From the sequence record OR911938.1: a DNA stretch of 45,453 nucleotides; one strand, 5' to 3'. The notes below the pieces were generated by a model. That model had not been told where the DNA came from. It saw only the letters and a list, made by a program, of their open reading frames with translations, and ran no database searches. Shown here in pieces: positions 3,546 to 40,493 of this stretch. This DNA is from Escherichia phage vB_EcoS_SD276. The position numbers were made by a program, and so were the translations under genes. The number at the start of each line of letters is the position of its first letter. Within the stretch, counting starts at the first letter, position 1.

Positions 3546-4632
3546 TCAATATATGGCGGATCGAATGATCCGCCGGCACATCTTCACCCAGCGCCTGAGC
3601 AATGGCCAGGCGCGAAGGGTGCTGGCTATGTGGGAGAAATTCCGGCCTACATTACTGGGGAAGCTGACCGAGTTGCTTGATGGCAAAAAGTCCATGAATA
3701 ATAAGGCACTTTCCACGCTGTTAACGCAACTCGACAAGACCGTTAAAGCAGAATTGCGCACCGAGTTTAAGGTGTTGGCTGAAAGCCTTCAGGAGTTTGC
3801 CGACACGGAGGCTGATTATCTCGCCGACACATTAACGGCAGCGATCCAGCCGGTGGTCGCCGTACCTGCGGTCGAGGTGGTTGGCGTAGTGACCGGTGCG
3901 CAGATCGCAGCGACGGCTATGAAAAACCCGTTCCAGGGAAATACCATGATGCAATGGCCTGATTCATTGTCTGAGTGGGCCAGGACGCAGATCAGGAATC
4001 AGGTGCGCGCTGGATTCATCCAGGGCAAGCCAACTATGGAAATTATAGCGGACGTGAGGCGCGCGCTCGGCGGTCGTAGTGCGCAAGCCATCTCGAGCGT
4101 TGTTAAGTCCGCAGTCAACCACTATGCGGCGACAGCCCGCGAACTAATGGTAAAAGCAAATGACGATATTCTCGAAGGTCGCCAATGGTTATCTACATTG
4201 GACACGCATACTTCTCCCATGTGCCAGCTACGCGATCGCCTGTTTTATCCGGTTGATGTTACTCCCGACACCAAAGGAAAGCGCGGCGGGAAAGTGGTGG
4301 CTGGGTCACAATATGGCGCTGGTCCGGGCAAGTTGCATTACTGTTGCCGGTCGACGGAGACGTGGAAGGTTAAAGGCATGGAAGATTGGCCCAGTGGTAA
4401 GCGTCCGGCACTGAAGGCTGACGCGGGTCGATTGCTGAGTGAGCAGGTCGACGCGCAGACTGATTTCTTCTCATGGGTGCAGCGCCAGCCGCGCCATATC
4501 CTGGAAGAATTATACGGAGTGCAACGCGCCGACCAGATTATGCGCGGCGTGAAAGTGCCAAAGATGTTCACCGATTCCGGCGAACTGATGACTATTGCAC
4601 AGCTTAAAAACCGGGGGTTGTGGCGTGATTAA
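3529..4632 (+). CDS. minor head / head morphogenesis protein (Mu F / SPP1 gp7-like)
   Basis: 367 aa after portal; C-terminal motif LSTLDTHTSPMCQLRDRLFYPVD resembles the Mu F-family domain. Confidence 0.6.
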   Translation: MAKTINQYMADRMIRRHIFTQRLSNGQARRVLAMWEKFRPTLLGKLTELLDGKKSMNNKALSTLLTQLDKTVKAELRTEFKVLAESLQEFADTEADYLADTLTAAIQPVVAVPAVEVVGVVTGAQIAATAMKNPFQGNTMMQWPDSLSEWARTQIRNQVRAGFIQGKPTMEIIADVRRALGGRSAQAISSVVKSAVNHYAATARELMVKANDDILEGRQWLSTLDTHTSPMCQLRDRLFYPVDVTPDTKGKRGGKVVAGSQYGAGPGKLHYCCRSTETWKVKGMEDWPSGKRPALKADAGRLLSEQVDAQTDFFSWVQRQPRHILEELYGVQRADQIMRGVKVPKMFTDSGELMTIAQLKNRGLWRD

Positions 4633-6199: not shown

Positions 6200-6234
6200 T
6201 TTGTCTTCCTTCATATCTCTGTTGGTGTGCAACC

Positions 6235-6264
6235 AATATACCGCAACCAACATTCGCAATGCAA
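6235..6264 (-). promoter_or_regulatory. sigma70-like promoter for antisense cassette (TTGCAT-N18-TATATT)
   Basis: Hexamers read on minus strand; followed by GGTTGCACACCAAC and RBS. Confidence 0.5.
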
Positions 6265-11510: not shown

Positions 11511-11824
11511 TTGAGGCGGCGCGACGCTTTTATGGCCCGCCGCCACCCTCCGAAGATTTAGCCGCGAGTTTATGGGGGGCGGCCCCGGAAGACGTTTGCC
11601 CTCCTGTTGCACTATGGCCCGACAACGCGAAGGTAGTCGCCGTCTTTACAGATTGCTCCACGCAATGGCGCACCGGATTCGGTGGCGCATACGGCATCGA
11701 CTACGGCGTACTGGAATGGCTTTTTAAGATGCACGGCATCGAAAACGCGCAGCGTGCGTTTAAAGATATCAAGCTAATGGAACGCGTTGCGCTGGATGAA
11801 ATGGCGCGGCAGAACCCAGCATAA
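11148..11824 (+). CDS. tail assembly chaperone GT-like fusion via programmed -1 frameshift at A_AAA_AAC (11501-11507)
   Basis: -1 frame is open for 105 codons (LIEAARRFYGPPPPSEDL...MARQNPA*) from the slip site to TAA at 11822-11824 without any in-frame ATG ORF call. Confidence 0.5.
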
Positions 11825-11828
11825 CGGA

Positions 11829-12142
11829 GCGGGACAAGCGGGACGTCCCGCTTGTCCCGCACCTCTAAAAACTGCATATTTACCCGCCAACATTGCATAA
11901 ATTAAAAGCGGGACAGGGTGCTGTCCCGATCTGTCCCGCCCACAAAATGTGAATATCTATTCAGTTTTCGTGCATAAAACAAACGGGACAAAAAGCGGGA
12001 CAGAATGGGGTGGGACAGATCGGGACAGCACCCTGTCCCCGCCAGTGCTGCCGCGGGTTTTAGCCGATCGGGACAGGCGGGACAAAGCCCAGTCTTTCAG
12101 ACTAGACGGGGGTCATTGGCCCCCCTCGTCTGAGACTGAATA
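11829..12142. repeat. GGGACA-rich non-coding element, copy A (32-bp perfect palindrome + repeat array + 53-bp hairpin module)
   Basis: At least 12 GGGACA/TGTCCC hexamers; palindrome GCGGGACAAGCGGGAC|GTCCCGCTTGTCCCGC at 11829-11860; module 12090-12142 identical to 40286-40338. Confidence 0.7.
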
Positions 12143-12206
12143 AGGTTTGTTTTAAATTCGCTGATACAATTAACGACGGCAACTGCATAAAAAGGGGGAC
12201 TGCATA

Positions 12207-14849
12207 ATGGCAGATCAGGCAGCGGGCATCACGCTAAAGGCGGACGTCGCGCAAATTAAAACGGCTAATACTGTGCTGGACACATTTGCGCAGAAATCCG
12301 AGAACACAGAACAGAAAGTAAAGAAATTAAACGACACCCTCGGCAAGTCGAAAAAGGTTACTGGCGACGCCGCGGGCGGAATGGAAAAGTTAGCGACTGA
12401 ATCGCAGCGTGCCGCCGATGGCATGACGAAACAGGAGCGACTCGCCAGCCGATTAGGCATGTCGACCAAAAACCTGGGATTCGCATCGCGGAACGCCGCA
12501 TTCCAGTTACAGGATATTGCGGTGACGCTTGAGATGGGTATGCCGGTGCACCGCGTTATGCTTCAGCAGTTACCGCAGCTTACTGGGGCGTTTGGCGGAC
12601 TGGGTAACACGCTGCGATATGTTGCGGGCTTTCTCGGCCCAGTGGGGATCGGCCTTTCGGCATTAACGGCGACGTTAGGCGTAGGGGTGGCAATTACGAC
12701 CCGCGCAGAGAACCAAGTGGCGGCGCTTAATAAGACGCTGGCGCTGTCCGGTAATATTTCAGGCCTCACAGCTAACCAGATCCTTGTGCTGTCCGAGAAC
12801 GCCGAGCGCATGGGCGGGTCATTTCGCAAGACGCGTGACACAATCCAGGCGCTGGCGGCGGCGGGGGTGAAAGCGGGTGGTGACTTCGGCGCATTGGCTA
12901 AGGTAGTTAATGACTTTGCGAAGGTGTCCAGCCAGCCGATCGAGGATGTGGTAGCGGCGGTAGCGAAGCTGTCAACCGACCCCGTTGGCGGACTGCGTGC
13001 GCTGGCGGATAAGTATCACGTCGTAAACGAAGCGCAGATCCAGCAGGTACAGTCGCTCGTTGATGCGGGTCGTGAGACAGACGCAGTTGCGTTGGCTAAC
13101 AAAACAGCCGCTGCGTCGTTCACCAGCATGACCAATGAGATCAAGGCGAACATGGGTACGCTTGAGCGATCTATGAACGTCGTCACATCGGCAGCCAAAT
13201 CAATGTGGGACGCCATCCTGGATGTGGGCCGCGCGCAGTCCTCCAATGAGTCCGAGATGAAAGCGCGCGAATCACTACAGCGCATGACCACGGCTTACTA
13301 TGCCGAGATGAAAGCGGTAAACGCTGCCGGTGGGGTAATGACTGAAGCGCAGAAAGCACGTATTAACATGCTTTACAGCGAACTGGTCGCCCAGGAAAAG
13401 GTAGTGGCGTCGCTCACCCTGCGTAACCGTGCCGAGCGAGACAACGCCCGCGCCGCAGACGAATCCGCAAAGGCGAACGAGGAGGCCAACCGCACCGCCC
13501 GCGACCGTGCCGCGTTTGAAAAGGAGTACGCAACTAACGCTAAGAAGCGCGCCGACGAGATCGCCCGCCTCAATTTGCTGAATAAGCGCGGCGTTATTGA
13601 TGAGAAAGAGCTTGCCGAGGCGGTGAAGCAGGTAAACGAGCGTTACAAAGACCCCGCACCGAAGAAGGCCGCCGCGGTACGAGTCGATGCCGGTATGAAA
13701 ATGCTGGAAGTCGCACGGAGCGAACTGGCCCAGCTTCGAGAATCCAGCAAGCAGATCGAAGCCAACGCATCTACGCAGACCCGCACGCAACGCGCTCAAG
13801 CGGCCTTAAACAAGCTGATCGCCGACAATGAGCAGTTAATCGCTGCGAGCAAAGAAAGAGCGCTAACGGCAGCAGAAAAGCAGCAGATGGTCGAATTCGG
13901 ACGCGTGAAGGAAGTGCGCGAGCAGATCGTCGAAGAAGCCAAATTGCTGGACGCGAAAGAGAAGCAGGTTAAGGCGCACGCGCAGATCGAGGCCTTCGTT
14001 AAGAACCAGAACGCCGAACTAAAAGCCACAGCCGCTGGCTATGCGCTTTCCACTCGCGAAGCGGCAAACCTGCGCGAAGAATTGCAGCTAATCGATCGTC
14101 TGAAGCGGGTTGGCGCTAACGATACCGATATTGGCAAGGCGGTGTCTAAGCTGCGGGAAGTGCAGGAGGCGCAGACCGGCGCTAACGCCTCGCTATGGGA
14201 TGGATTCAGTCGCGGGCTTAAGGATAGCGTGGATGAAATGGGTAACGGATATACGCAGATGGCGTCGCTCACGAAATTCACATTCAGCGCTATGCAAGAC
14301 ACGATGAACGAGTTTTTCGAGACTGGCAAGCTGAACGCAAAGGATATGGTTAAATCCATCCTAAGCGAGTTAATCAAGCTGGCTACCTCGCAGGCGTTCA
14401 AGTCGATCGTTAGCGCTTTCGGTGGTGACGGCGGCAAAAACGGATTGTTCGGCGCTATCTTCTCCGGCCTCACTAAGAATGCGGACGGCGGAGCGTACGC
14501 AGGAGGCAATCTCGCGGCCTATTCCGGTCAGGTAGTAAGCCAGCCCACCTTTTTCAGTTATGGCGTCCAGGCGTTCGCTAAGGGCGCAGGATTGATGGGT
14601 GAGGCTGGCCCCGAGGCCATCATGCCTCTGAAGCGCGGGCCGGACGGGAAACTGGGCGTTGCCGCTTCTGGCGCAGGCGGGGGTATGATCGTGACGACTA
14701 ACGTTTACACTGGGACCGGTAAAACAGACACCAGTGTGAGCGGCCCAGACCCACGCACCGCGCAGGCGTTCGGCAAGCAAATCACCGAGGCGGTGAAGGC
14801 CGAGATCGTGAAAGCGACGAAACCGGGTGGTGTACTTTACAAACGATGA
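12207..14849 (+). CDS. tail tape measure protein
   Basis: 880 aa, long Ala/Gln/Lys/Glu-rich helical protein with hydrophobic glycine-rich segments, downstream of G/GT. Confidence 0.85.
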   Translation: MADQAAGITLKADVAQIKTANTVLDTFAQKSENTEQKVKKLNDTLGKSKKVTGDAAGGMEKLATESQRAADGMTKQERLASRLGMSTKNLGFASRNAAFQLQDIAVTLEMGMPVHRVMLQQLPQLTGAFGGLGNTLRYVAGFLGPVGIGLSALTATLGVGVAITTRAENQVAALNKTLALSGNISGLTANQILVLSENAERMGGSFRKTRDTIQALAAAGVKAGGDFGALAKVVNDFAKVSSQPIEDVVAAVAKLSTDPVGGLRALADKYHVVNEAQIQQVQSLVDAGRETDAVALANKTAAASFTSMTNEIKANMGTLERSMNVVTSAAKSMWDAILDVGRAQSSNESEMKARESLQRMTTAYYAEMKAVNAAGGVMTEAQKARINMLYSELVAQEKVVASLTLRNRAERDNARAADESAKANEEANRTARDRAAFEKEYATNAKKRADEIARLNLLNKRGVIDEKELAEAVKQVNERYKDPAPKKAAAVRVDAGMKMLEVARSELAQLRESSKQIEANASTQTRTQRAQAALNKLIADNEQLIAASKERALTAAEKQQMVEFGRVKEVREQIVEEAKLLDAKEKQVKAHAQIEAFVKNQNAELKATAAGYALSTREAANLREELQLIDRLKRVGANDTDIGKAVSKLREVQEAQTGANASLWDGFSRGLKDSVDEMGNGYTQMASLTKFTFSAMQDTMNEFFETGKLNAKDMVKSILSELIKLATSQAFKSIVSAFGGDGGKNGLFGAIFSGLTKNADGGAYAGGNLAAYSGQVVSQPTFFSYGVQAFAKGAGLMGEAGPEAIMPLKRGPDGKLGVAASGAGGGMIVTTNVYTGTGKTDTSVSGPDPRTAQAFGKQITEAVKAEIVKATKPGGVLYKR

Positions 14850-26033: not shown

Positions 26034-26063
26034 ACTATAGTGCAACCAACCTATTGGTTGCAA
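26034..26063 (-). promoter_or_regulatory. sigma70-like promoter (TTGCAA-N18-TATAGT)
   Basis: Hexamers on minus strand, GGTTGC boxes in spacer, followed by leader hairpin. Confidence 0.5.
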
Positions 26064-27705: not shown

Positions 27706-27734
27706 AATATAATGCAACCAATATGATTATGCAA
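27706..27734 (-). promoter_or_regulatory. sigma70-like promoter (TTGCAT-N17-TATATT)
   Basis: Hexamers on minus strand, TTGGTTGCAT repeated twice. Confidence 0.55.
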
Positions 27735-27739
27735 CCAAT

Positions 27740-30646: not shown

Positions 30647-30675
30647 ACTATACCGCTATGCGACCAATTCAGCAA
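30647..30675 (-). promoter_or_regulatory. sigma70-like promoter (TTGCTG-N17-TATAGT)
   Basis: Hexamers on minus strand upstream of zinc-ribbon gene. Confidence 0.45.
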
Positions 30676-30934
30676 CCAATAAATCACAGTCGGCAATGTT
30701 GTCTATAACGCGAACGTCAGCGCCGCGGCGGGCCATCCGCTCGTGTTCTCGTACCTGGTGCGGCTTAGGTTTGCCGCCTGGGCGCTTCACTTCGACGAAC
30801 ACTATTTTGCCGTTGATGATGATAATCAGATCGGGCGCACCCGAGCGCCCCTCCCATGCCACTTTGCGGCAGAATCCGCCGACGGCTTTCACCCGTCCCA
30901 TCAAGTGACTTTGAATCTTGCCTTCTGGTGTCAT
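30656..30934 (-). CDS. VRR-NUC domain nuclease
   Basis: Motif PDLIIIINGKIVFVEVKRPGGKPKPHQ (D...E-V-K...Q) typical of VRR-NUC; overlaps polymerase stop. Confidence 0.55.
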   Translation of the reverse strand: MTPEGKIQSHLMGRVKAVGGFCRKVAWEGRSGAPDLIIIINGKIVFVEVKRPGGKPKPHQVREHERMARRGADVRVIDNIADCDLLVAELVA

Positions 30935-33449: not shown

Positions 33450-34229
33450 TTAACGGCGGCGACGTTTACGTGGTGCTTCGTCTTCGTCGTCTTCGTCCTC
33501 ATCTTCATCGTCGCGCGGCTTACGACGTTTACGAGGTTTCTCATCTTCGTCGTCTTCGTCGTCATCGCGGCGCTTGGACTTTTTGGACTTGCGCGGCTTG
33601 TCGTCTTCGTCATCACGACGTTTTGACTTTTTGGACTTGCGCGGGCTTTCATCTTCGTCATCGTTGTCCAGGTCTTCGTCGGAGCAAGAAGACCCGCCAC
33701 CGCCGAAGGCTTCGCCGTCATCACGGAAGCGCAGACCTAAAAGACCAGCACCGAGTCCCTTGCCGTTGGTATTGTTCCACGCCCAAATATCCAGGGACAC
33801 GTTGCAATAACAACCGGAGTAGATCTCCTGGCCTTCGATCTCGTCGCCTTCTACGGTCAGACCTTGTTCAGTCTGCTTCTCGCCGAGTGACGTTTGAATG
33901 ATCGGCTGTTTGAACGATTTGGCGTTGATGTACAACATGCCTTCGAATTCTTCGGTTACTTCGTCGCGCTCGTCACCGTCGCGAACTGCGCATTCCTTAG
34001 AATCCTGTGCGTAGTGGCGGTCCATCCACTTATCGGCGTTCTTCTCGGATTTCAGCTTGTCGGTGAGCACTGCGCGCGCTGCCGCTTCCACTTTGTCCAC
34101 CTGCGGATCTTCTTTATCCAGAAGAATCACGGCACGGTATGCCGGTTTTTGTCCATCCTGTTTAGGGGTATCACGTTCCCAAATTTTCAGGAAACATACG
34201 CGCACATTTTTCAGGTTGACTTTAGCCAT
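33450..34229 (-). CDS. ssDNA-binding-like protein (gp2.5/DUF2815-like) with repetitive charged C-terminal tail
   Basis: N-terminus MAKVNLKNVRV and segment YSGCYCNVSLDIWAWNNTNGKGLGAGLLGLRF resemble phage SSB-like proteins; C-terminal PRKSKKSKRRDDEDD repeats. Confidence 0.5.
   Translation of the reverse strand: MAKVNLKNVRVCFLKIWERDTPKQDGQKPAYRAVILLDKEDPQVDKVEAAARAVLTDKLKSEKNADKWMDRHYAQDSKECAVRDGDERDEVTEEFEGMLYINAKSFKQPIIQTSLGEKQTEQGLTVEGDEIEGQEIYSGCYCNVSLDIWAWNNTNGKGLGAGLLGLRFRDDGEAFGGGGSSCSDEDLDNDDEDESPRKSKKSKRRDDEDDKPRKSKKSKRRDDDEDDEDEKPRKRRKPRDDEDEDEDDEDEAPRKRRRR
33555..33655. repeat. ~48-bp tandem repeat (2 units) inside SSB-like gene
   Basis: Near-identical DNA units encoding (S/K)PRKSKKSKRRDDEDD. 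Confidence 0.6.
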
Positions 34230-34294
34230 TTTCCAATTCCTCATTTTCACATGTATCGGGGTTATTGTGAGCCACCCCGTTCGGCTTGGTTGCT

Positions 34295-34323
34295 AATCTA
34301 CTTGGTTGCGCCTAAGCGGTCAA
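34295..34323 (-). promoter_or_regulatory. sigma70-like promoter (TTGACC-N17-TAGATT)
   Basis: Hexamers on minus strand upstream of SSB-like gene, GCAACCAAG boxes. Confidence 0.5.
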
Positions 34324-36473: not shown

Positions 36474-37013
36474 TTAGTCTTCCAGTTCGAAATAAGTTTC
36501 GACGATTTCTTTTAGCTCGGTGTGGAAGTCTTCGACGTCGTCATCTTCCAGCTTGGCGATTGATTTGATCTCGAACGATTCCAGCAGGTCGTCAAATTCG
36601 TCGTTCGCATCGTCATCATCACCGCCCGCGATAATCGCGGCATACTGTTTGATCTCGTCGCGCATCTCTGCCAGCGGATCGGCATCTTTCTTACCTTTGC
36701 CTTTCGCTGGTGCTTTTTTACCCTTCGCCGGTTTTTCGTCTTCGGCTTCATCCTCGTCGTCATCCTCTACGACTTCTTTTTTGGCCTTACCTTTAGACTT
36801 GGTTTCTTTTGCCGCGCCTTTTTTCGCTTTGGGCGTATCTTCGACTTCGTCCTGATCGTCGTCTTCGACTTCGTTCTCCGGCTTGGCCTTGCCTTTCTTA
36901 GCGGTGCCGTTTGTTTTTGGGTCTACGGCAGCGCCAACGGTTTCATAATGCTTAGCGATGATTTCCAGTGCTACTACGCCGCGAGTGATCAGGTTTACGA
37001 TTTGCTCAAACAT
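36474..37013 (-). CDS. highly charged low-complexity early protein (179 aa)
   Basis: First gene of leftward operon; RBS GGAGATATACC-ATG; alternating Lys-rich and Asp/Glu-rich blocks. Confidence 0.5.
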   Translation of the reverse strand: MFEQIVNLITRGVVALEIIAKHYETVGAAVDPKTNGTAKKGKAKPENEVEDDDQDEVEDTPKAKKGAAKETKSKGKAKKEVVEDDDEDEAEDEKPAKGKKAPAKGKGKKDADPLAEMRDEIKQYAAIIAGGDDDDANDEFDDLLESFEIKSIAKLEDDDVEDFHTELKEIVETYFELED

Positions 37014-37412: not shown

Positions 37413-37742
37413 ATGAATATCAAAGAAGCAATTGAAGTGTTATCTAATGCAATCCGCGGCGAAGCGGGTAAATCCTGGTATTACACAAATGCGGTGGATA
37501 CTCTGTTATTTGAAGTGTCCAGATTATCGCGTGCTGAGAAGGAGCTTACCGCGAAGCTGGAATTACTCAACGGCACGGCAGCAAGCAAGCTGCAAAAGCA
37601 CAATGAAGAAATGGAAGAATACAAAAAACAGGTTATCCGTTTGCGCGCCGAGGGCAAATCCTGGGCAATGATCGCTGAGTTGACAGGAATTAATCAGAGC
37701 ACCGTGCGCTCCTGGGTACGCAATAATAAAACTTCGAAGTAA
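37413..37742 (+). CDS. HTH DNA-binding protein, putative transcriptional regulator
   Basis: C-terminal helix-turn-helix-like segment GKSWAMIAELTGINQSTVRSWVRN; first gene after rightward promoter. Confidence 0.5.
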   Translation: MNIKEAIEVLSNAIRGEAGKSWYYTNAVDTLLFEVSRLSRAEKELTAKLELLNGTAASKLQKHNEEMEEYKKQVIRLRAEGKSWAMIAELTGINQSTVRSWVRNNKTSK

Positions 37743-37752
37743 GGCAACGGCA

Positions 37753-40017
37753 ATGAGCTTAATTAAATTCGCGGTAACACGACCCGCTAAAAAAGGCGAA
37801 AAAGCCAGGGCGGAAAACTTCCAGATGACCACCGATGAATTTTTCGAATTTATCAATGACGCGAAAGAAATCTCCTCGGTGCATATCAACAAGACGGAAG
37901 ATAAAGCCGAGTATGCGCGCCGCAAGCGTAAGGCCGATGGCATCGTGGCATATACCAGTGACGGCTTACGCCGCAAGACCAGTGCGGTGGACCGCTCGAT
38001 CCTGTTCTTCGATATTGACCGTACCGACACCCGCACCCTACGCCGCTGCCGTAAGGCTTTCATCGACGCGGGGCTGGAGCATGTATTCCACACAACCACC
38101 GGCGACCGCCACCCACTGAAAGGCGGAACGCGTTGCGCTCGCTTCCTGGTACTCACTGACAAGCCTGTCCCGGCTGAAGACCTGGGCCGTGTCCAGTATG
38201 CGCTATTACACCAACTTGGTCTGTCAGATGTGGACTTCGACGATTGTACGAAGGACACAAACCGTCTTATGTACCTGCCTCACCAGCAGTCTGTCATTAA
38301 GTGCCACCACGGCAAGCGCGCCAATGTGCGGCGTCTGCTCCGCCTGGCGGACAAGCTGGGGGTGGAGAAAGAGGAAGTACGCCGCGAGCTTACCCAGGGC
38401 GACGACGCAGTGGCGGACGGTATTCTGGACTGGTGCTTCCAGGCAGGATTCGAGGAGTTATCTTCCGGTCGCGGTTATGAAGTTCCGTGCCCGAACGAGC
38501 ATCTGCACAGCGGCGAAGGGTCGACGGCTATCATGGTTAAGGATGGCGAGATCCGTTTCAAATGTATGCACACCGGCAACGAGTGTTGCTCGGAGCTAAA
38601 TAGACACCAGCACCTTGCGCTACGTCTTATCGGGATACCGGACCACCTGAACGTCGAGCCGCACAACATGTCCCGTAAGCAAATCGCCGCCATCCTCCCA
38701 GGGCTGGACGACGAGGAAGTCGAATCCTTATATGAACATATTGTTGATGCGGTTGGCGACGGCGAAGAATACGGCGTGTGCACCGATGCGGATCTGGATA
38801 ACGAGCCGGTTGCGCTGTTCAGTAAGCACGACCCGATCATCGAGGGGTTGATTAACTTTAAATCGACCTGGTATATGGCGGGTGAGTCGAATATCGGCAA
38901 GTCCTTCTACGTGCTGGGGCAGATGGGCGCGGTTGCCGCGGGGATCCCGTTTGGTGGTGCGAAGGTAGTCCAGTCGCATTGCTTCTATTTTGATGCGGAA
39001 GGCGGCGAAGCCTCCAACCAGCGCAAAGAAGCATTGCAGATTAAATATGAGCACGACCTGGACAAGCTGCACATTATAGACCTGCAATCCCGCGGCTGGG
39101 ATATCACCAGCAAGTCCGGTTTGCGCGAAGTTATCAGCTTTATCAACCGCACTGCTAACGGCGAACCGGTTGGCCTGGTGGCGTTCGACTCACTCAACCA
39201 GACTGTTGCGCTGCGGTCCGCCGATGCTAAACCGTTTGACGAGAACAACGCCAGCGATATGGGTGAAGTGGTCAAAGCGCTGAAAGCCATTGCGGAAAAT
39301 ACAGGTGGCAGTGCGGGCGTCATCCACCACCCGGCGAAGGGTGCAAACGGCAGCAGATCTCCCCGTGGGTCCGGCGCACTGCATGGCGCTGTCGATTCTG
39401 CGTTCTTCCTGGAACAGCCGGACGACAACCAGCCGGGACAACTTAACCTGTACCACGAAAAATCACGTAACGGCATCAAGCAAGCGCCGCGTGGCTTCGT
39501 CCTGCTCAAGTGCAAGGTGGAGGTGGATCTCCGCAAGTCAGAAGCGTTCGCGTCGCACCAGTCCACCAGCACCGGGCCGGACTTCGGAGACGTCGTTGCC
39601 GGTTGGGACGTCAAACCAATTGCGTCCACCCCGCGCGATGAGACTCTATACCTCGTACCGGTCGCCCTGGAACCGTTCGCTATAGAACAGGCGAAGGCGG
39701 CGGGCAAAGCCGCAGTTAAGGAAGAAAACGCCGCCGGTCCGCGCAACGAAAAAGAGAAAGTGCTTTATGCGGCCCTGGAAAAACTGATGGAAGATAACCC
39801 GAACCATACCGGCTTCAGTAAATCGGCAATTGTCCGCCAGGCTGGACTCGCGAAGGGTGGTACTTCGACGAAGGCAATCGACGATATGGTCGAGCGCGGC
39901 GTGATTGGTTTCTATTCAGATCCGCACACCGGGGCCATCTATGGGTCGTCGAATTTAGTCATCAAATCGGATATCCCCATAACGCTTTCGGCGACCGATG
40001 ATGACCTGAACGATTAA
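37753..40017 (+). CDS. primase-polymerase (AEP-like) / helicase-ATPase fusion protein
   Basis: N-terminal DxD motif ILFFDIDRTD, central Cys/His zinc-binding region, C-terminal RecA-like ATPase with Walker A GESNIGKS and Walker B LVAFDSLNQ. Confidence 0.7.
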   Translation: MSLIKFAVTRPAKKGEKARAENFQMTTDEFFEFINDAKEISSVHINKTEDKAEYARRKRKADGIVAYTSDGLRRKTSAVDRSILFFDIDRTDTRTLRRCRKAFIDAGLEHVFHTTTGDRHPLKGGTRCARFLVLTDKPVPAEDLGRVQYALLHQLGLSDVDFDDCTKDTNRLMYLPHQQSVIKCHHGKRANVRRLLRLADKLGVEKEEVRRELTQGDDAVADGILDWCFQAGFEELSSGRGYEVPCPNEHLHSGEGSTAIMVKDGEIRFKCMHTGNECCSELNRHQHLALRLIGIPDHLNVEPHNMSRKQIAAILPGLDDEEVESLYEHIVDAVGDGEEYGVCTDADLDNEPVALFSKHDPIIEGLINFKSTWYMAGESNIGKSFYVLGQMGAVAAGIPFGGAKVVQSHCFYFDAEGGEASNQRKEALQIKYEHDLDKLHIIDLQSRGWDITSKSGLREVISFINRTANGEPVGLVAFDSLNQTVALRSADAKPFDENNASDMGEVVKALKAIAENTGGSAGVIHHPAKGANGSRSPRGSGALHGAVDSAFFLEQPDDNQPGQLNLYHEKSRNGIKQAPRGFVLLKCKVEVDLRKSEAFASHQSTSTGPDFGDVVAGWDVKPIASTPRDETLYLVPVALEPFAIEQAKAAGKAAVKEENAAGPRNEKEKVLYAALEKLMEDNPNHTGFSKSAIVRQAGLAKGGTSTKAIDDMVERGVIGFYSDPHTGAIYGSSNLVIKSDIPITLSATDDDLND

Positions 40018-40127
40018 AATTTGCGCGCATTGGTTGCCGATATGGGAATTCCCATATCGCTAAAAGACTAAAATTTGCGCGCATTGGTTGCCATTTTGAG
40101 TGTTTTTAGCTGGTCGCATTGGTTGCC
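40016..40127. repeat. GCATTGGTTGCC iteron-like direct repeats (3 copies) with inverted copy at 40398-40409
   Basis: AAAATTTGCGCGCATTGGTTGCC at 40016-40038 and 40070-40092, GCATTGGTTGCC at 40116-40127; flanks 20-bp perfect palindrome GATATGGGAATTCCCATATC (40039-40058). Confidence 0.6.
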
Positions 40128-40153
40128 GTGTAGTGTAAATATAATGAATAGTT

Positions 40154-40338
40154 ATGCAGTTTTATTGCATAAAGTAAGCGGGACAAAAAGAGGGACAGAC
40201 CAGGGGCGGGACAAAGCGGGACAGCACCCCCGTCCCGCCCCGGATGACGCGGCCTGGCGGGGAGCGGGACAGGCGGGACAAACCCCAGTCTTTCAGACTA
40301 GACGGGGGTCATTGGCCCCCCTCGTCTGAGACTGAATA
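40154..40338. repeat. GGGACA-rich non-coding element, copy B
   Basis: TTGCATAAA-N-GCGGGACA array ending in the same 53-bp module as copy A (identical by eye). Confidence 0.7.
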
Positions 40339-40493
40339 AAATCCGGGATTGCAAAATACACGGCAGCACATTGGAAATCGCGGTCGTCGACGAACTAGGC
40401 AACCAATGCGAGATGCGGAATGGTGGGTGGAAAATGCAGTTTGCATTTGCAACGGATAGCGATCGACTTTTTCATACGCGTGATTAATATTGG

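Follow-up and report, generated by a model that had tools for sequence, protein, structure and literature searches.

Two copies of a candidate iteron-type replication origin in Escherichia phage vB_EcoS_SD276

Two non-coding gaps in the genome of Escherichia phage vB_EcoS_SD276 probably each hold a copy of an iteron-type origin, to which the initiator of the phage replicon would bind, as judged by comparison of sequences. The window analyzed (OR911938.1, 45,453 nt) is the whole genome of a Dhillonvirus coliphage of the HK578/SO-1 type. Region A (11825-12206, + strand) is the entire gap from the GT tail chaperone stop to the tape measure ATG, and region B (40018-40493, + strand) is the gap 3' of the helicase-primase gene. 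Both contain a repeat cluster at roughly helical-turn spacing with an adjacent A+T-rich stretch, and two separated clusters of one repeat type are present in one genome throughout the genus. An initiator whose specificity is matched to these iterons is suggested by inference only, from the variation of one predicted domain of the helicase-primase with the type of repeat. Of the three options offered by the original prediction (a multi-site operator, a small structured RNA gene, or an iteron-type replication or partition site), the last fits the comparative evidence best, and the structured RNA was unsupported.

Layout of the two gaps

The gap between the G/GT chaperone and the tape measure gene, predicted to be about 380 bp of non-coding DNA, measured 382 nt (GT-chaperone frame stop at 11824, tape measure ATG at 12207). 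At least 12 GGGACA/TGTCCC hexamers had been claimed for it, and 12 GGGACA were counted within 11831-12084. Another 6 were within 40180-40280, so that 18 of the 28 in the window fell in two gaps that make up less than 2% of the genome. When 1 mismatch or fewer was allowed, gap A had 14 CGGGACA sites (9 on the + strand and 5 on the - strand) and gap B had 7. These iterons were spaced 9-15 bp apart, direct and inverted, or roughly one per helical turn. The gaps share a core of approximately 195 nt in the same orientation with approximately 85% identity (11950-12143 and 40145-40339). The cores are 28,196 bp apart, or 17,257 bp going the other way round, and core B starts 128 nt past the helicase-primase stop.

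Region A begins with the predicted 32-bp perfect palindrome, GCGGGACAAGCGGGACGTCCCGCTTGTCCCGC (11829-11860), which was confirmed as the longest perfect palindrome in the whole genome and is composed of four iterons (11830+, 11839+, 11844-, and 11853-). The homologous site in the HK578 record is annotated as a rho-independent terminator, and TTTT follows the first palindrome in most relatives but does not follow it in the SD276 window. Next is a TGCAT...TGCATAAA unit (11873-11901, + strand), a degenerate copy of the box unit with two TGCAT half-boxes 21 bp apart, which is conserved in relatives. Iterons at 11909+, 11922-, and 11932- (11909-11941) form the left arm of a 32-nt inverted repeat, the right arm of which (12008-12039) is 97% complementary. 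Between the arms is the AT-rich box unit (11950-11978), made of the perfect palindrome TGAATATCTATTCA (11950-11963) and the half-box TGCATAAA (11971-11978), which is 21 bp further on; GC content over the 40 nt at 11940-11979 was 0.30, compared to approximately 0.55 for the genome. The main iteron array (11984-12040, + strand) has four direct CGGGACA-type iterons at 11984, 11996, 12011, and 12021 (spacing 12/15/10) and one inverted iteron (12034-12040). A GC-rich spacer specific to copy A, CCAGTGCTGCCGCGGGTTTTAGCCGAT (12041-12068, + strand), is constant among A copies and different in B copies; a similar spacer is present in a distant lineage. A pair of direct iterons with 9-bp spacing (12069-12084, + strand) is located directly 5' of an imperfect hairpin module (12088-12143).

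Copy B repeats this plan. Its equivalent AT-rich box unit (40145-40173) consists of TGAATAGTTATGCA (40145-40158) and TGCATAAA (40166-40173). It is followed by its iterons (40179-40280, + strand), with four direct at 40179, 40191, 40207, and 40217, one inverted at 40231-40237, a B-specific spacer, and two direct at 40265 and 40274, and then by the hairpin module (40284-40339). The hairpin had been described as a 53-bp duplicate (12090-12142 and 40286-40338); the copies are identical as described, and the identity extends to 56 bp (12088-12143 and 40284-40339). Three TGCATAAA-N5-6-CGGGACA units had also been described within 11829-12142. Two were found (11894 and 11971), and the third TGCATAAA (12184) is outside that interval and is followed by GGGGGACT. 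There are four TGCATAAA in the genome, all within the two gaps. As single-stranded DNA, the 56-bp hairpin had a dG of -13.4 kcal/mol (z -3.9).

Some of these features would also be expected of transcriptional control. The helicase-primase or a different phage protein could use the repeats as operators, with the palindromes and hairpin acting as terminators or attenuators, such that region B separates early from later genes and region A sets the level of the tape measure and distal tail genes. Both copies are indeed located at boundaries inside co-oriented operons. An extended -10 promoter-like sequence, TGATACAAT (12162-12170, + strand), is conserved 3' of the region A core, approximately 37 nt 5' of the tape measure ATG, in 15 of 15 relatives read, and its presumed function softens the premise that genes of the tail module are tightly packed. 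Promoter-like ATTGGTTGC motifs flank region B, a terminator-like hairpin with CTTTTAATTT is present on the minus strand at 11928-11909, and the HK578 annotation and the TTTT of the relatives point the same way. However, no U-tract follows the terminal hairpin in copy A (GAATAAGG), copy B (GAATAAAA), or the other lineages, and terminator-like sites were at background level and not enriched over shuffles. A simple promoter scan found no sigma-70 consensus promoter in either gap. Control alone also leaves unexplained why the repeat type tracks a primase-helicase domain and why the AT-rich box and hairpin keep a fixed order across lineages. We consider control unlikely as the explanation of the element, although regulation and origin function are compatible and not mutually exclusive.

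Conservation and distribution of the element

Searches of both copies, which the original prediction had proposed, returned no Rfam family and showed both copies in all of approximately 158 sequenced relatives, at about two places per record. The claim that a second copy indicates a maintained element is strongly supported because both copies are found genus-wide. A 23-nt hairpin core was found in IMG/VR only in Dhillonvirus contigs, typically twice per genome. No match to the element was found in 5,426 E. coli genomes or 72,556 plasmids (PLSDB), and a host or plasmid source was rejected on these searches. In 30 aligned A and B copies, the hexamers and hairpin stem were invariant, and the inter-hexamer spacers, hairpin loop, and long spacer varied. 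This pattern is expected of protein-binding sites and structure, not of coding sequence. A conserved protein in relatives, which would have spoken against the original prediction, was also considered; a 64-aa ORF (11949-12143) had in-frame stops and frame shifts in relatives and no Pfam match.

The element is not newly noticed. The RefSeq record of Sodalis phage SO-1 (NC_013600) has repeat_region features named "region A" and "region B" at the same two loci, to which the SD276 regions are homologous, with the text [quoted passage not shown]. The element was flagged there without explanation. Our literature searches found no published analysis of the function, binding protein, or distribution of the SO-1 regions, nothing relevant on origins in Dhillonvirus or Guernseyvirinae, and no definition of the origins and initiator of Dhillonvirus.

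The distribution bears on two further explanations. A selfish or passive repeat, either MITE-like or a duplication made by recombination and lacking a function of its own, could account for two copies with approximately 85% identity in one genome, and there was a weak signal of copy-to-copy homogenization of A and B within genomes (permutation P = 0.02). However, the copies occupy the same two positions in all relatives with purifying selection at the level of motifs, have no terminal inverted repeats or target duplications, and were not found in host genomes, plasmids, or other phage groups, making this explanation the least probable of those considered.

Alternatively, the element could be a two-copy small structured non-coding RNA in which the GGGACA/GGA-rich repeats and hairpins act as RNA, for example as a protein sponge or an anti-defense RNA. 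The hairpin stems are invariant and the loops variable, other lineages have differing hairpin sequences at the same position, the core of approximately 200 nt folds better as RNA than shuffles do (z -2.7), and TATAAT is present just 5' of the region B core. Against this, Rfam 15 gave no match at gathering score for the whole window, and the sub-threshold matches, on both strands, were to generic long-hairpin miRNA models. No conserved promoter is shared by copies A and B or by the lineages, and there is no intrinsic terminator, the hairpin having no U-tract 3' of it. The repeats occur in both orientations at helical-turn spacing, as expected for sites in duplex DNA, and covariation with a winged-helix domain is not predicted by an RNA role. 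We regard an RNA gene as improbable, somewhat more so than transcriptional control.

The helicase-primase and the type of repeat

The proposed initiator is the 754-aa helicase-primase encoded at 37753-40017 (+ strand), which has an N-terminal AEP prim-pol fold, a Zn-type Cys/His motif, an AAA_25 (RepA-like) helicase core at residues 357-531, and a C-terminal winged helix. The predicted winged-helix domain (residues approximately 666-737; 39748-39963, + strand) is the proposed iteron reader. Its fold is generic, and its model was of moderate confidence (mean pLDDT 68 for the fragment and approximately 80 for the domain). Comparison of the helicase-primase sequence to the PDB gave insignificant matches only (RepA, E = 0.44; eS25 winged helix, E = 0.49), and these weak matches were followed up with structure prediction.

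Relatives with helicase-primases that are 37-68% identical share the modular layout 3' of that gene, in the order of iterons, double palindromic box, iterons, inverted iteron, spacer, two iterons, and hairpin. The 14-mer TGAATAGTTATGCA, which is related to TGAATATCTATTCA, was near-identical across lineages in which the helicase-primase is 37-49% identical. The iteron itself differs by lineage, being CGGGACA in Dhillonvirus, GGGGAGA in Cornellvirus FSL SP-031, TCCGACA, CGGACAA, AGGGATA, or GGGGATR in others, and ACTCGCAA in another. Lineages with other iterons have different hairpins in the same place (z -2.2 to -3.6). Pairs that differ in iteron were found among L062, L054, and L063, and between L058 and L055-57. 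The primase and helicase parts of their helicase-primases are 86-99% identical, and residues 640-754 are only 50-64% identical.

Other candidate readers of the repeats were rejected. The original prediction had suggested a small HTH protein (37413-37742, + strand; HTH_23 or sigma-70 region 4-like) encoded upstream of the helicase-primase, but the HTH proteins of L056 and L064 are approximately 95% identical and their iterons differ; this protein is probably a regulator and not the iteron reader. FSL SP-031 and a phage with CGGACAA iterons have small terminases that are 95% identical. Likewise, L056 and L057 share iterons and have different downstream genes. In these comparisons, the repeats change type together with the C-terminal domain of the helicase-primase, a predicted winged helix, and independently of the HTH protein, the small terminase, and the downstream gene. 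The iterons and this domain are 300 bp or less apart, and the covariation could therefore be due in part to linkage in mosaic exchange rather than recognition. FSL SP-031 has one repeat cluster only, and relatives L045-L049 and L052, which have similar helicase-primases, showed no obvious iterons downstream.

The terminase comparison also bears on packaging, in which region B, and perhaps region A, would be a recognition array for terminase near a pac or cos site. Four independent GenBank records are linearized approximately 105 nt 3' of the region B hairpin, one record has Ns there, and one metagenomic contig begins inside the region A hairpin. Dhillonvirus packages by a headful mechanism (PMC9022532), and a pac site must therefore exist somewhere. 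However, the small terminase does not co-vary with the repeats, the terminase genes are 5 kb away, and in every lineage the architecture goes with the helicase-primase gene. The shared record ends may simply be due to authors having oriented genomes on one another. A packaging site is a very improbable reading of the element.

Proposed function and comparison with known systems

If regions A and B are origins, comparative evidence suggests that the C-terminal winged helix of the helicase-primase would read the CGGGACA repeats as double-stranded DNA, and that many subunits would gather beside the AT-rich box TGAATAnnTATkCA ... TGCATAAA. The DNA could unwind at that box, or a conserved accessory factor, possibly ArgR of the host, could be seated there. 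The RepA-like helicase ring may then be loaded onto the melted DNA, and the flanking imperfect hairpin, once extruded or exposed as single strands, may signal the N-terminal AEP primase to load or to prime, a role that would resemble that of the RSF1010 ssi hairpins or the stem-loop origins of pRN1 and BIP-1. Region B, beside the initiator gene, would be ancestral, and region A would be a Dhillonvirus-specific second copy inserted in the tail operon. Region A may itself be an origin. Alternatively, it may be bound by the initiator and either pair with region B or block forks that come from there, the role suggested for SPP1 oriR or P4 crr. The cumulative GC skew of SD276 follows gene orientation, with a minimum at approximately 36.5-37.3 kb and not at 40.2 or 12.0 kb; origin mapping by skew is uninformative here because skew follows the direction of transcription. 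The replisome is otherwise T7-like (Pol A and a gp2.5-like SSB). T7-like replisomes are not known to use iterons, a point that we count against the origin reading.

Bacillus phage SPP1 has two origins, oriL and oriR, that consist of direct repeats together with an AT-rich stretch, both bound by gp38 (G38P) (PMC6316719). As would be the case in SD276, one is located in the replication module and the other is intergenic, interrupting late virion-assembly genes (PMC6316719; PMC3485210); the two sites are separated on the circular map by approximately 13 kb in SPP1 and approximately 17 kb in SD276. The second SPP1 copy has been proposed to stall forks, triggering a switch to concatemer synthesis (PMC6316719; PMC3485210). 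However, gp38 is unrelated, SPP1 uses a separate loader, a DnaB-type helicase, and host primase and polymerases, its oriL is inside the initiator gene, and SPP1 is not described as having a terminal hairpin module or ARG-like box. The proposed SD276 initiator had no PDB, Pfam, or PHROG match to gp38 or P4 alpha, and the families differ (AEP, AAA_25, and winged helix in SD276).

Satellite phage P4 reportedly has two separated repeat clusters, ori and crr, both of which are needed in cis. The P4 iterons are TGTTCACC, which are unrelated to CGGGACA. In P4 alpha, one polypeptide carries a primase, a helicase, and, at the C-terminus, a winged-helix domain that binds the origin by reading short repeats (PMC4234260), but alpha has a Toprim-type primase and an SF3-type helicase, whereas the SD276 protein has an AEP fold and a RecA-type helicase of the AAA_25/RepA family. 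The P4 winged-helix domain was neither a sequence match nor a top structural match of the SD276 helicase-primase. RSF1010 has iterons and ssi hairpins at its origin (PMC4234260). In RSF1010/R1162 oriV, RepC, RepA, and RepB' are separate, the iterons are 20 bp, and two ssi hairpins are on opposite strands; in contrast, SD276 has one polypeptide, 7-bp iterons, and one imperfect palindromic hairpin, at which priming may take place. In pRN1 (ORF56/ORF904) and Bordetella phage BIP-1, a stem-loop origin is located directly 3' of a prim-pol/helicase/winged-helix gene that is preceded by a small repressor gene (PMC4234260). In pRN1 and BIP-1 the order is a small repressor, an AEP prim-pol/helicase/winged-helix protein, and then an origin with a required stem-loop (PMC4234260), and the gene order of SD276, with its candidate origin, matches. 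However, pRN1 has an SF3 helicase and no iterons, and its stem-loop of approximately 100 nt alone suffices.

The AT-rich box raises the question of a host factor. ArgR, which works as a hexamer, bends DNA and is able to link two sites. The core TGAAT-N4-ATTCA, which is the core of the 18-bp imperfect palindrome in the ARG-box consensus reported by Maas and Charlier, occurred at 11950 with 0 mismatches and at 40145 with 1 mismatch, and these were the only two in the genome. The quoted conserved ARG-box positions (G4, A6, T7, A12, and T13) agree with that consensus (PMC6640053), and an ArgR operator consists of two 18-bp ARG boxes with a 3-bp spacer, 39 bp in all (PMC6640053, PMC4381063). FSL SP-031-like (Guernseyvirinae-like) relatives have TGAATAGTTATGCAG-AAAAAG-TGAATAGTTATTCG, at the canonical 21-bp spacing and with 2-4 mismatches at 20 core positions, compared to 6-7 mismatches for the best double-ARG-box match in shuffled genomes. 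The second box of SD276 is a half-site only, and its total of 6 mismatches is at chance level. Unlike in ArgR operators, the central four bases here are not always A/T. At ColE1 cer, which has an accessory ARG box, ArgR has an architectural role on the DNA of a mobile element, but it did not bind a site near P1 loxP that matches the consensus at 16 of 18 positions (PMC2409434). The C at ARG-box position 10, as in the region A box, is unusual (PMC2409434). A preprint of a genome-wide screen did not mention argR or pepA. No dif-like XerCD core of a cer/dif-type Xer site was found within 3 mismatches anywhere in the window, and matches to a DnaA box or a sigma-54 promoter in the AT-rich unit, sought by eye, were incomplete and lacked conservation in relatives. 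The resemblance to an ARG box may have no meaning. It is nevertheless conceivable, if doubtful, that ArgR is recruited to a conserved ARG-operator-like box at the origins of a wide range of siphophages of enterobacteria (Dhillonvirus and Guernseyvirinae-like lineages), coupling initiation by a fused AEP-primase/RepA-helicase/winged-helix initiator to the arginine status of the host or to origin architecture. The tail-operon copy of Dhillonvirus would then pair with the other copy, or block its forks, and switch the mode of replication in the way suggested for SPP1 oriR.

Dhillonviruses belong to the coliphages that are isolated most often and include laboratory workhorses of anti-phage defense research (SECphi4, SECphi18, and BASEL Bas14-18). 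The comparative pattern offers a testable specificity code, in which at least 7 iteron types each go with their own C-terminal winged-helix module, exchangeable on a primase-helicase that is otherwise conserved, and a candidate minimal replicon made of the HTH protein, the helicase-primase, and a 200-bp element. For phage engineering, it could provide origin-compatible vectors and help to avoid lethal edits in "non-coding" gaps. It would also aid the reading of mosaic recombination and may bear on defense systems that sense replication proteins. If the box were a true ArgR site, it would be a new link between the amino-acid status of the host and lytic phage replication.

Anatomy and conservation of the two repeat regions

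The window is approximately a complete genome of Dhillonvirus (HK578/SSL-2009a/SO-1-like virulent coliphages), and a 600-nt query around the finding matched 158 phage records at 80-95% identity. The terminase gene lies at 56-2013, head and tail genes occupy the plus strand to ~24.8 kb, and a minus-strand block (24.8-37.2 kb) holds the family-A DNA polymerase, gp2.5-like SSB, exonuclease, and helicase genes. From 37.4 kb, a plus-strand block is led by a 109-aa HTH protein followed by a 754-aa "replicative helicase-primase." Inside minus-strand genes, runs of GTCTTCGTC-type direct repeats (33460-33650 and 36718-36890; families D1, D3, and D5) probably correspond to low-complexity tracts, acidic or basic, of a 255-aa protein and the SSB-like protein.

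Region A, the gap between the GT tail chaperone and tape measure genes, measured 382 nt from the stop of the chaperone frame (11824) to the tape measure ATG (12207), in agreement with the ~380 bp of the original prediction. It was also noncoding as predicted; ORFs overlapping the gap had zero Pfam matches and were not conserved, with in-frame stops and frame changes in relatives. Exact GGGACA hexamers, expected to number at least 12, occurred 12 times in this gap and 6 times in the second gap at 40180-40280 (region B, after the helicase-primase gene), out of 28 genome-wide. With one mismatch allowed, CGGGACA sites numbered 14 in gap A and 7 in gap B.

Region A opens with the predicted 32-bp perfect palindrome, which is composed of four repeats (11829-11860) and is the longest perfect palindrome of the genome. 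It continues with a TGCAT...TGCATAAA unit (11873-11901), one direct and two inverted repeats (11909-11938), an AT-rich unit in which the perfect palindrome TGAATATCTATTCA is followed 21 bp on by TGCATAAA (11950-11978), four direct repeats and one inverted repeat (11984-12040), the GC-rich spacer CAGTGCTGCCGCGGGTTTTAGCCGAT (12041-12068), two direct repeats (12069-12084), and a hairpin (12088-12143). After the hairpin come TGATACAAT, an extended -10 motif that is conserved (12162), and then the tape measure ribosome-binding site. The hairpin module recurs identically as proposed, but its length is 56 bp rather than 53 bp (12088-12143 = 40284-40339). Of three proposed TGCATAAA-N-CGGGACA units, two were found within the predicted element, whereas the third lacks a following CGGGACA; all 4 genomic copies of TGCATAAA lie within the two gaps. 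The core of region B (40145-40339) runs from the AT-rich unit through the hairpin as in region A, and the similarity between the regions spans ~195 nt at ~85% identity.

When 15 A and 16 B copies were aligned, no variation was seen in the repeats or the hairpin stem; the differences fell in the inter-repeat bases, the hairpin loop, and the long spacer, which was copy-specific. In the 3' module, copies within one genome resembled each other slightly more than copies did between genomes (permutation P = 0.02), which hints at occasional gene conversion. A 23-nt hairpin core was found in IMG/VR in Dhillonvirus contigs only, usually 2 per genome. The core had zero matches in 5,426 complete E. coli genomes and in PLSDB plasmids. 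Position 1 of a 44-kb metagenomic contig (IMGVR_UViG_3300045988_009799, L012) falls inside the region A hairpin loop, suggesting an assembly break at the A/B repeat.

The observation is thus confirmed, and it had already been flagged as annotation. In RefSeq NC_013600, the record of Sodalis phage SO-1 from the same genus, two repeat_region features are marked: "region A," lying between gp16 and the tape measure gene, and "region B," which follows the helicase-primase gene, with the note [quoted passage not shown]. A literature search found no paper analyzing these regions.

Possible transcriptional and packaging roles of the repeat regions

The regions may plausibly have an added role in transcription, whether they act as terminator, attenuator, or operator. 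Both copies are at operon-internal boundaries, TTTT follows the first palindrome in many relatives, and a promoter lies downstream of region A; in the HK578 record, the first palindrome is labeled a rho-independent terminator. Such a role alone, however, leaves the tie to the helicase-primase unexplained. A small structured RNA, also suggested originally, was not supported, as no Rfam family, conserved promoter, or terminator was found.

Upstream of the region B core are three copies of a differing motif, ATTGGTTGC, and a 22-bp perfect palindrome (CGATATGGGAATTCCCATATCG, 40038-40059) flanked by two AAAATTTGCGCGCATTGGTTGCC copies just past the helicase-primase stop. Two further ATTGGTTGC copies, ~150 nt past the core, overlap a sigma-70-like promoter. 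The window holds 13 exact copies and 26 with at most one mismatch, compared to 12.4 +/- 3.3 in shuffles, with sites at 6229-6251, 22337, 26042-26061, 27714-27739, 30660-30680, 34285-34309, 37217, 40029, 40083, 40118, 40399, 40489, and 40520. They often come in pairs where gene blocks meet, share the strand of the genes that follow, and overlap sigma-70-like -35 elements (for example, TTGCAT-17-TAGATT at ~40493). The equivalent positions in Guernseyvirinae-like relatives carry ATGTTGGCTGC/CACGGCAGCA. ATTGGTTGC is probably a phage early/middle promoter-operator motif, and the small HTH protein is a candidate to bind it.

A packaging signal at region B is suggested only by GenBank record ends. 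Four independent Dhillonvirus records (Zar3M, PTXU06, SP1, and BMA1) are linearized ~105 nt past the region B hairpin, at window ~40445-40448 (the ends of NC_073065, L065/L066), where Zar3M has Ns. These shared ends may reflect a pac site, or else a convention passed on from one record to the next. Headful packaging has been reported for the genus (PMC9022532), but the terminase does not co-vary with the repeats.

Repeat type and the helicase-primase across lineages

Helicase-primase homologues and their surrounding DNA were collected for comparison. The gap 3' of the gene kept its modular order even where the protein was only 37-68% identical: 1-2 repeats, a double palindromic box, 3-4 direct repeats, inverted repeat(s), a ~30-nt GC-rich spacer, 2 direct repeats, a long G-rich hairpin, TTATTCA, and a promoter. 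The repeat itself was CGGGACA in Dhillonvirus and one 68% relative, GGGGAGA in Cornellvirus FSL SP-031, TCCGACA, CGGACAA, AGGGATA, or GGGGATR in other lineages, and ACTCGCAA in another. Hairpin sequences also differed between lineages, and each folded more stably than shuffled controls as single-stranded DNA (z -2.2 to -3.9). Unlike the repeats and hairpins, the 14-mer TGAATAGTTATGCA was near-identical across lineages. In several lineages (L050, L056, and L023), the hairpin loop holds an inverted copy or near-copy of the lineage's own repeat, such as TCTGTCGGA where the repeat is TCCGACA and TCTGTCCGA where it is CGGACAA.

Because FSL SP-031 has only one cluster of its own repeat in the whole genome and relatives carry the layout downstream of the helicase-primase gene, region B appears ancestral and region A a Dhillonvirus-specific second copy. 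The region A spacer CAGTGCTGCCGCGGGTTTTAGCCGAT resembles that of a distant lineage (CAGTGCTGGCGCGGGCTGCCGAT, L058 ~3910-3935), unlike the region B spacer of the same genome, so this segment may be closer to its ancestral form in region A. No obvious repeats or box were present 3' of the gene in L045-L049 and L052, whose helicase-primases are similar, with C-termini 47-58% identical to those of iteron-bearing relatives. The origin of this sub-lineage may lie elsewhere or be of another type.

The helicase-primase genes are mosaic across lineages. Those of L062 (GGGGAGA), L063 (TCCGACA), and L053/54 (CGGACAA) showed 86-99% identity through the primase and helicase parts, falling to 50-64% over residues 640-754; likewise, L058 (TCCGACA) and L055-57 (CGGACAA) shared 98% identity up to the helicase and 51% after. 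These mosaics indicate that repeat type changes with the C-terminal domain, although domain and repeats are adjacent and may travel together by physical linkage. AlphaFold2 predicted a helix-strand-helix-helix-hairpin domain in the C-terminal fragment (residues ~666-737, pLDDT ~80). The center of the protein belongs to the AAA_25 (RepA) family, and its end is an acidic tail, D-[ED]-D-L, invariant in all lineages (window 39997-40014), which recalls the polymerase-contacting acidic C-termini of T7 gp4 and gp2.5.

Three other candidate readers did not track the repeats. The upstream HTH protein, nominated in the original prediction, was ~95% identical in L056 and L064, phages with different repeats. 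Two phages with the CGGACAA repeat have small terminases that are 95% and only 78% identical, respectively, to the FSL SP-031 protein, and L056 and L057 have identical repeats with different first downstream genes.

A candidate origin and its ARG-like box

The ARG box consensus core is TGAAT-N4-ATTCA. The E. coli ArgR operator has two 18-bp palindromic boxes 3 bp apart (PMC6640053, PMC4381063), and the conserved AT-rich unit resembles this double-box design. In FSL SP-031-like phages, the double box departs from the consensus at 2-4 of the 20 core positions; among shuffled 45-kb sequences, the best site had 6-7 mismatches, and 4 mismatches were reached once in 100 shuffles. The window has only two ARG-like cores, perfect at 11950 and with a single mismatch at 40145, each with only a half-box at the correct downstream distance. 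At ColE1 cer, ArgR is known to act on mobile DNA as an architectural accessory. However, it did not bind a sequence near P1 loxP that matches the consensus at 16/18 positions, and C at box position 10, as in the region A box, is unusual (PMC2409434). No Xer core site was present in the window. Binding of ArgR to the candidate box is a lead of fairly low probability; the box may instead be an unwinding element or a site for a conserved phage domain.

On balance, we favor a duplicated iteron-type origin or initiator-binding element, read by the predicted winged helix of a fused AEP-primase/RepA-helicase. The helicase-primase would be an initiator uniting three activities that are split in RSF1010 among RepC, RepA, and RepB', and RSF1010, with iterons and ssi hairpins, is a precedent for the repeats and hairpin here. 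The predicted winged helix would recognize the repeats and gather many subunits beside the AT-rich box. We infer the later steps from precedent systems: the helicase would open the DNA, and the hairpin might act as a single-strand loading or priming signal. The winged helix of the P4 alpha primase-helicase binds origin repeats, and pRN1/BIP-1 origins have stem-loops directly 3' of a prim-pol/helicase/winged-helix gene with a small repressor gene ahead (PMC4234260). The closest precedent for a second copy is SPP1, with oriL within the replication module and oriR in an intergenic segment interrupting late genes (PMC6316719). GC skew was uninformative on origin position. For this widely used group of phages, both the specificity code and the conserved ARG-like box offer new leads that can be tested.
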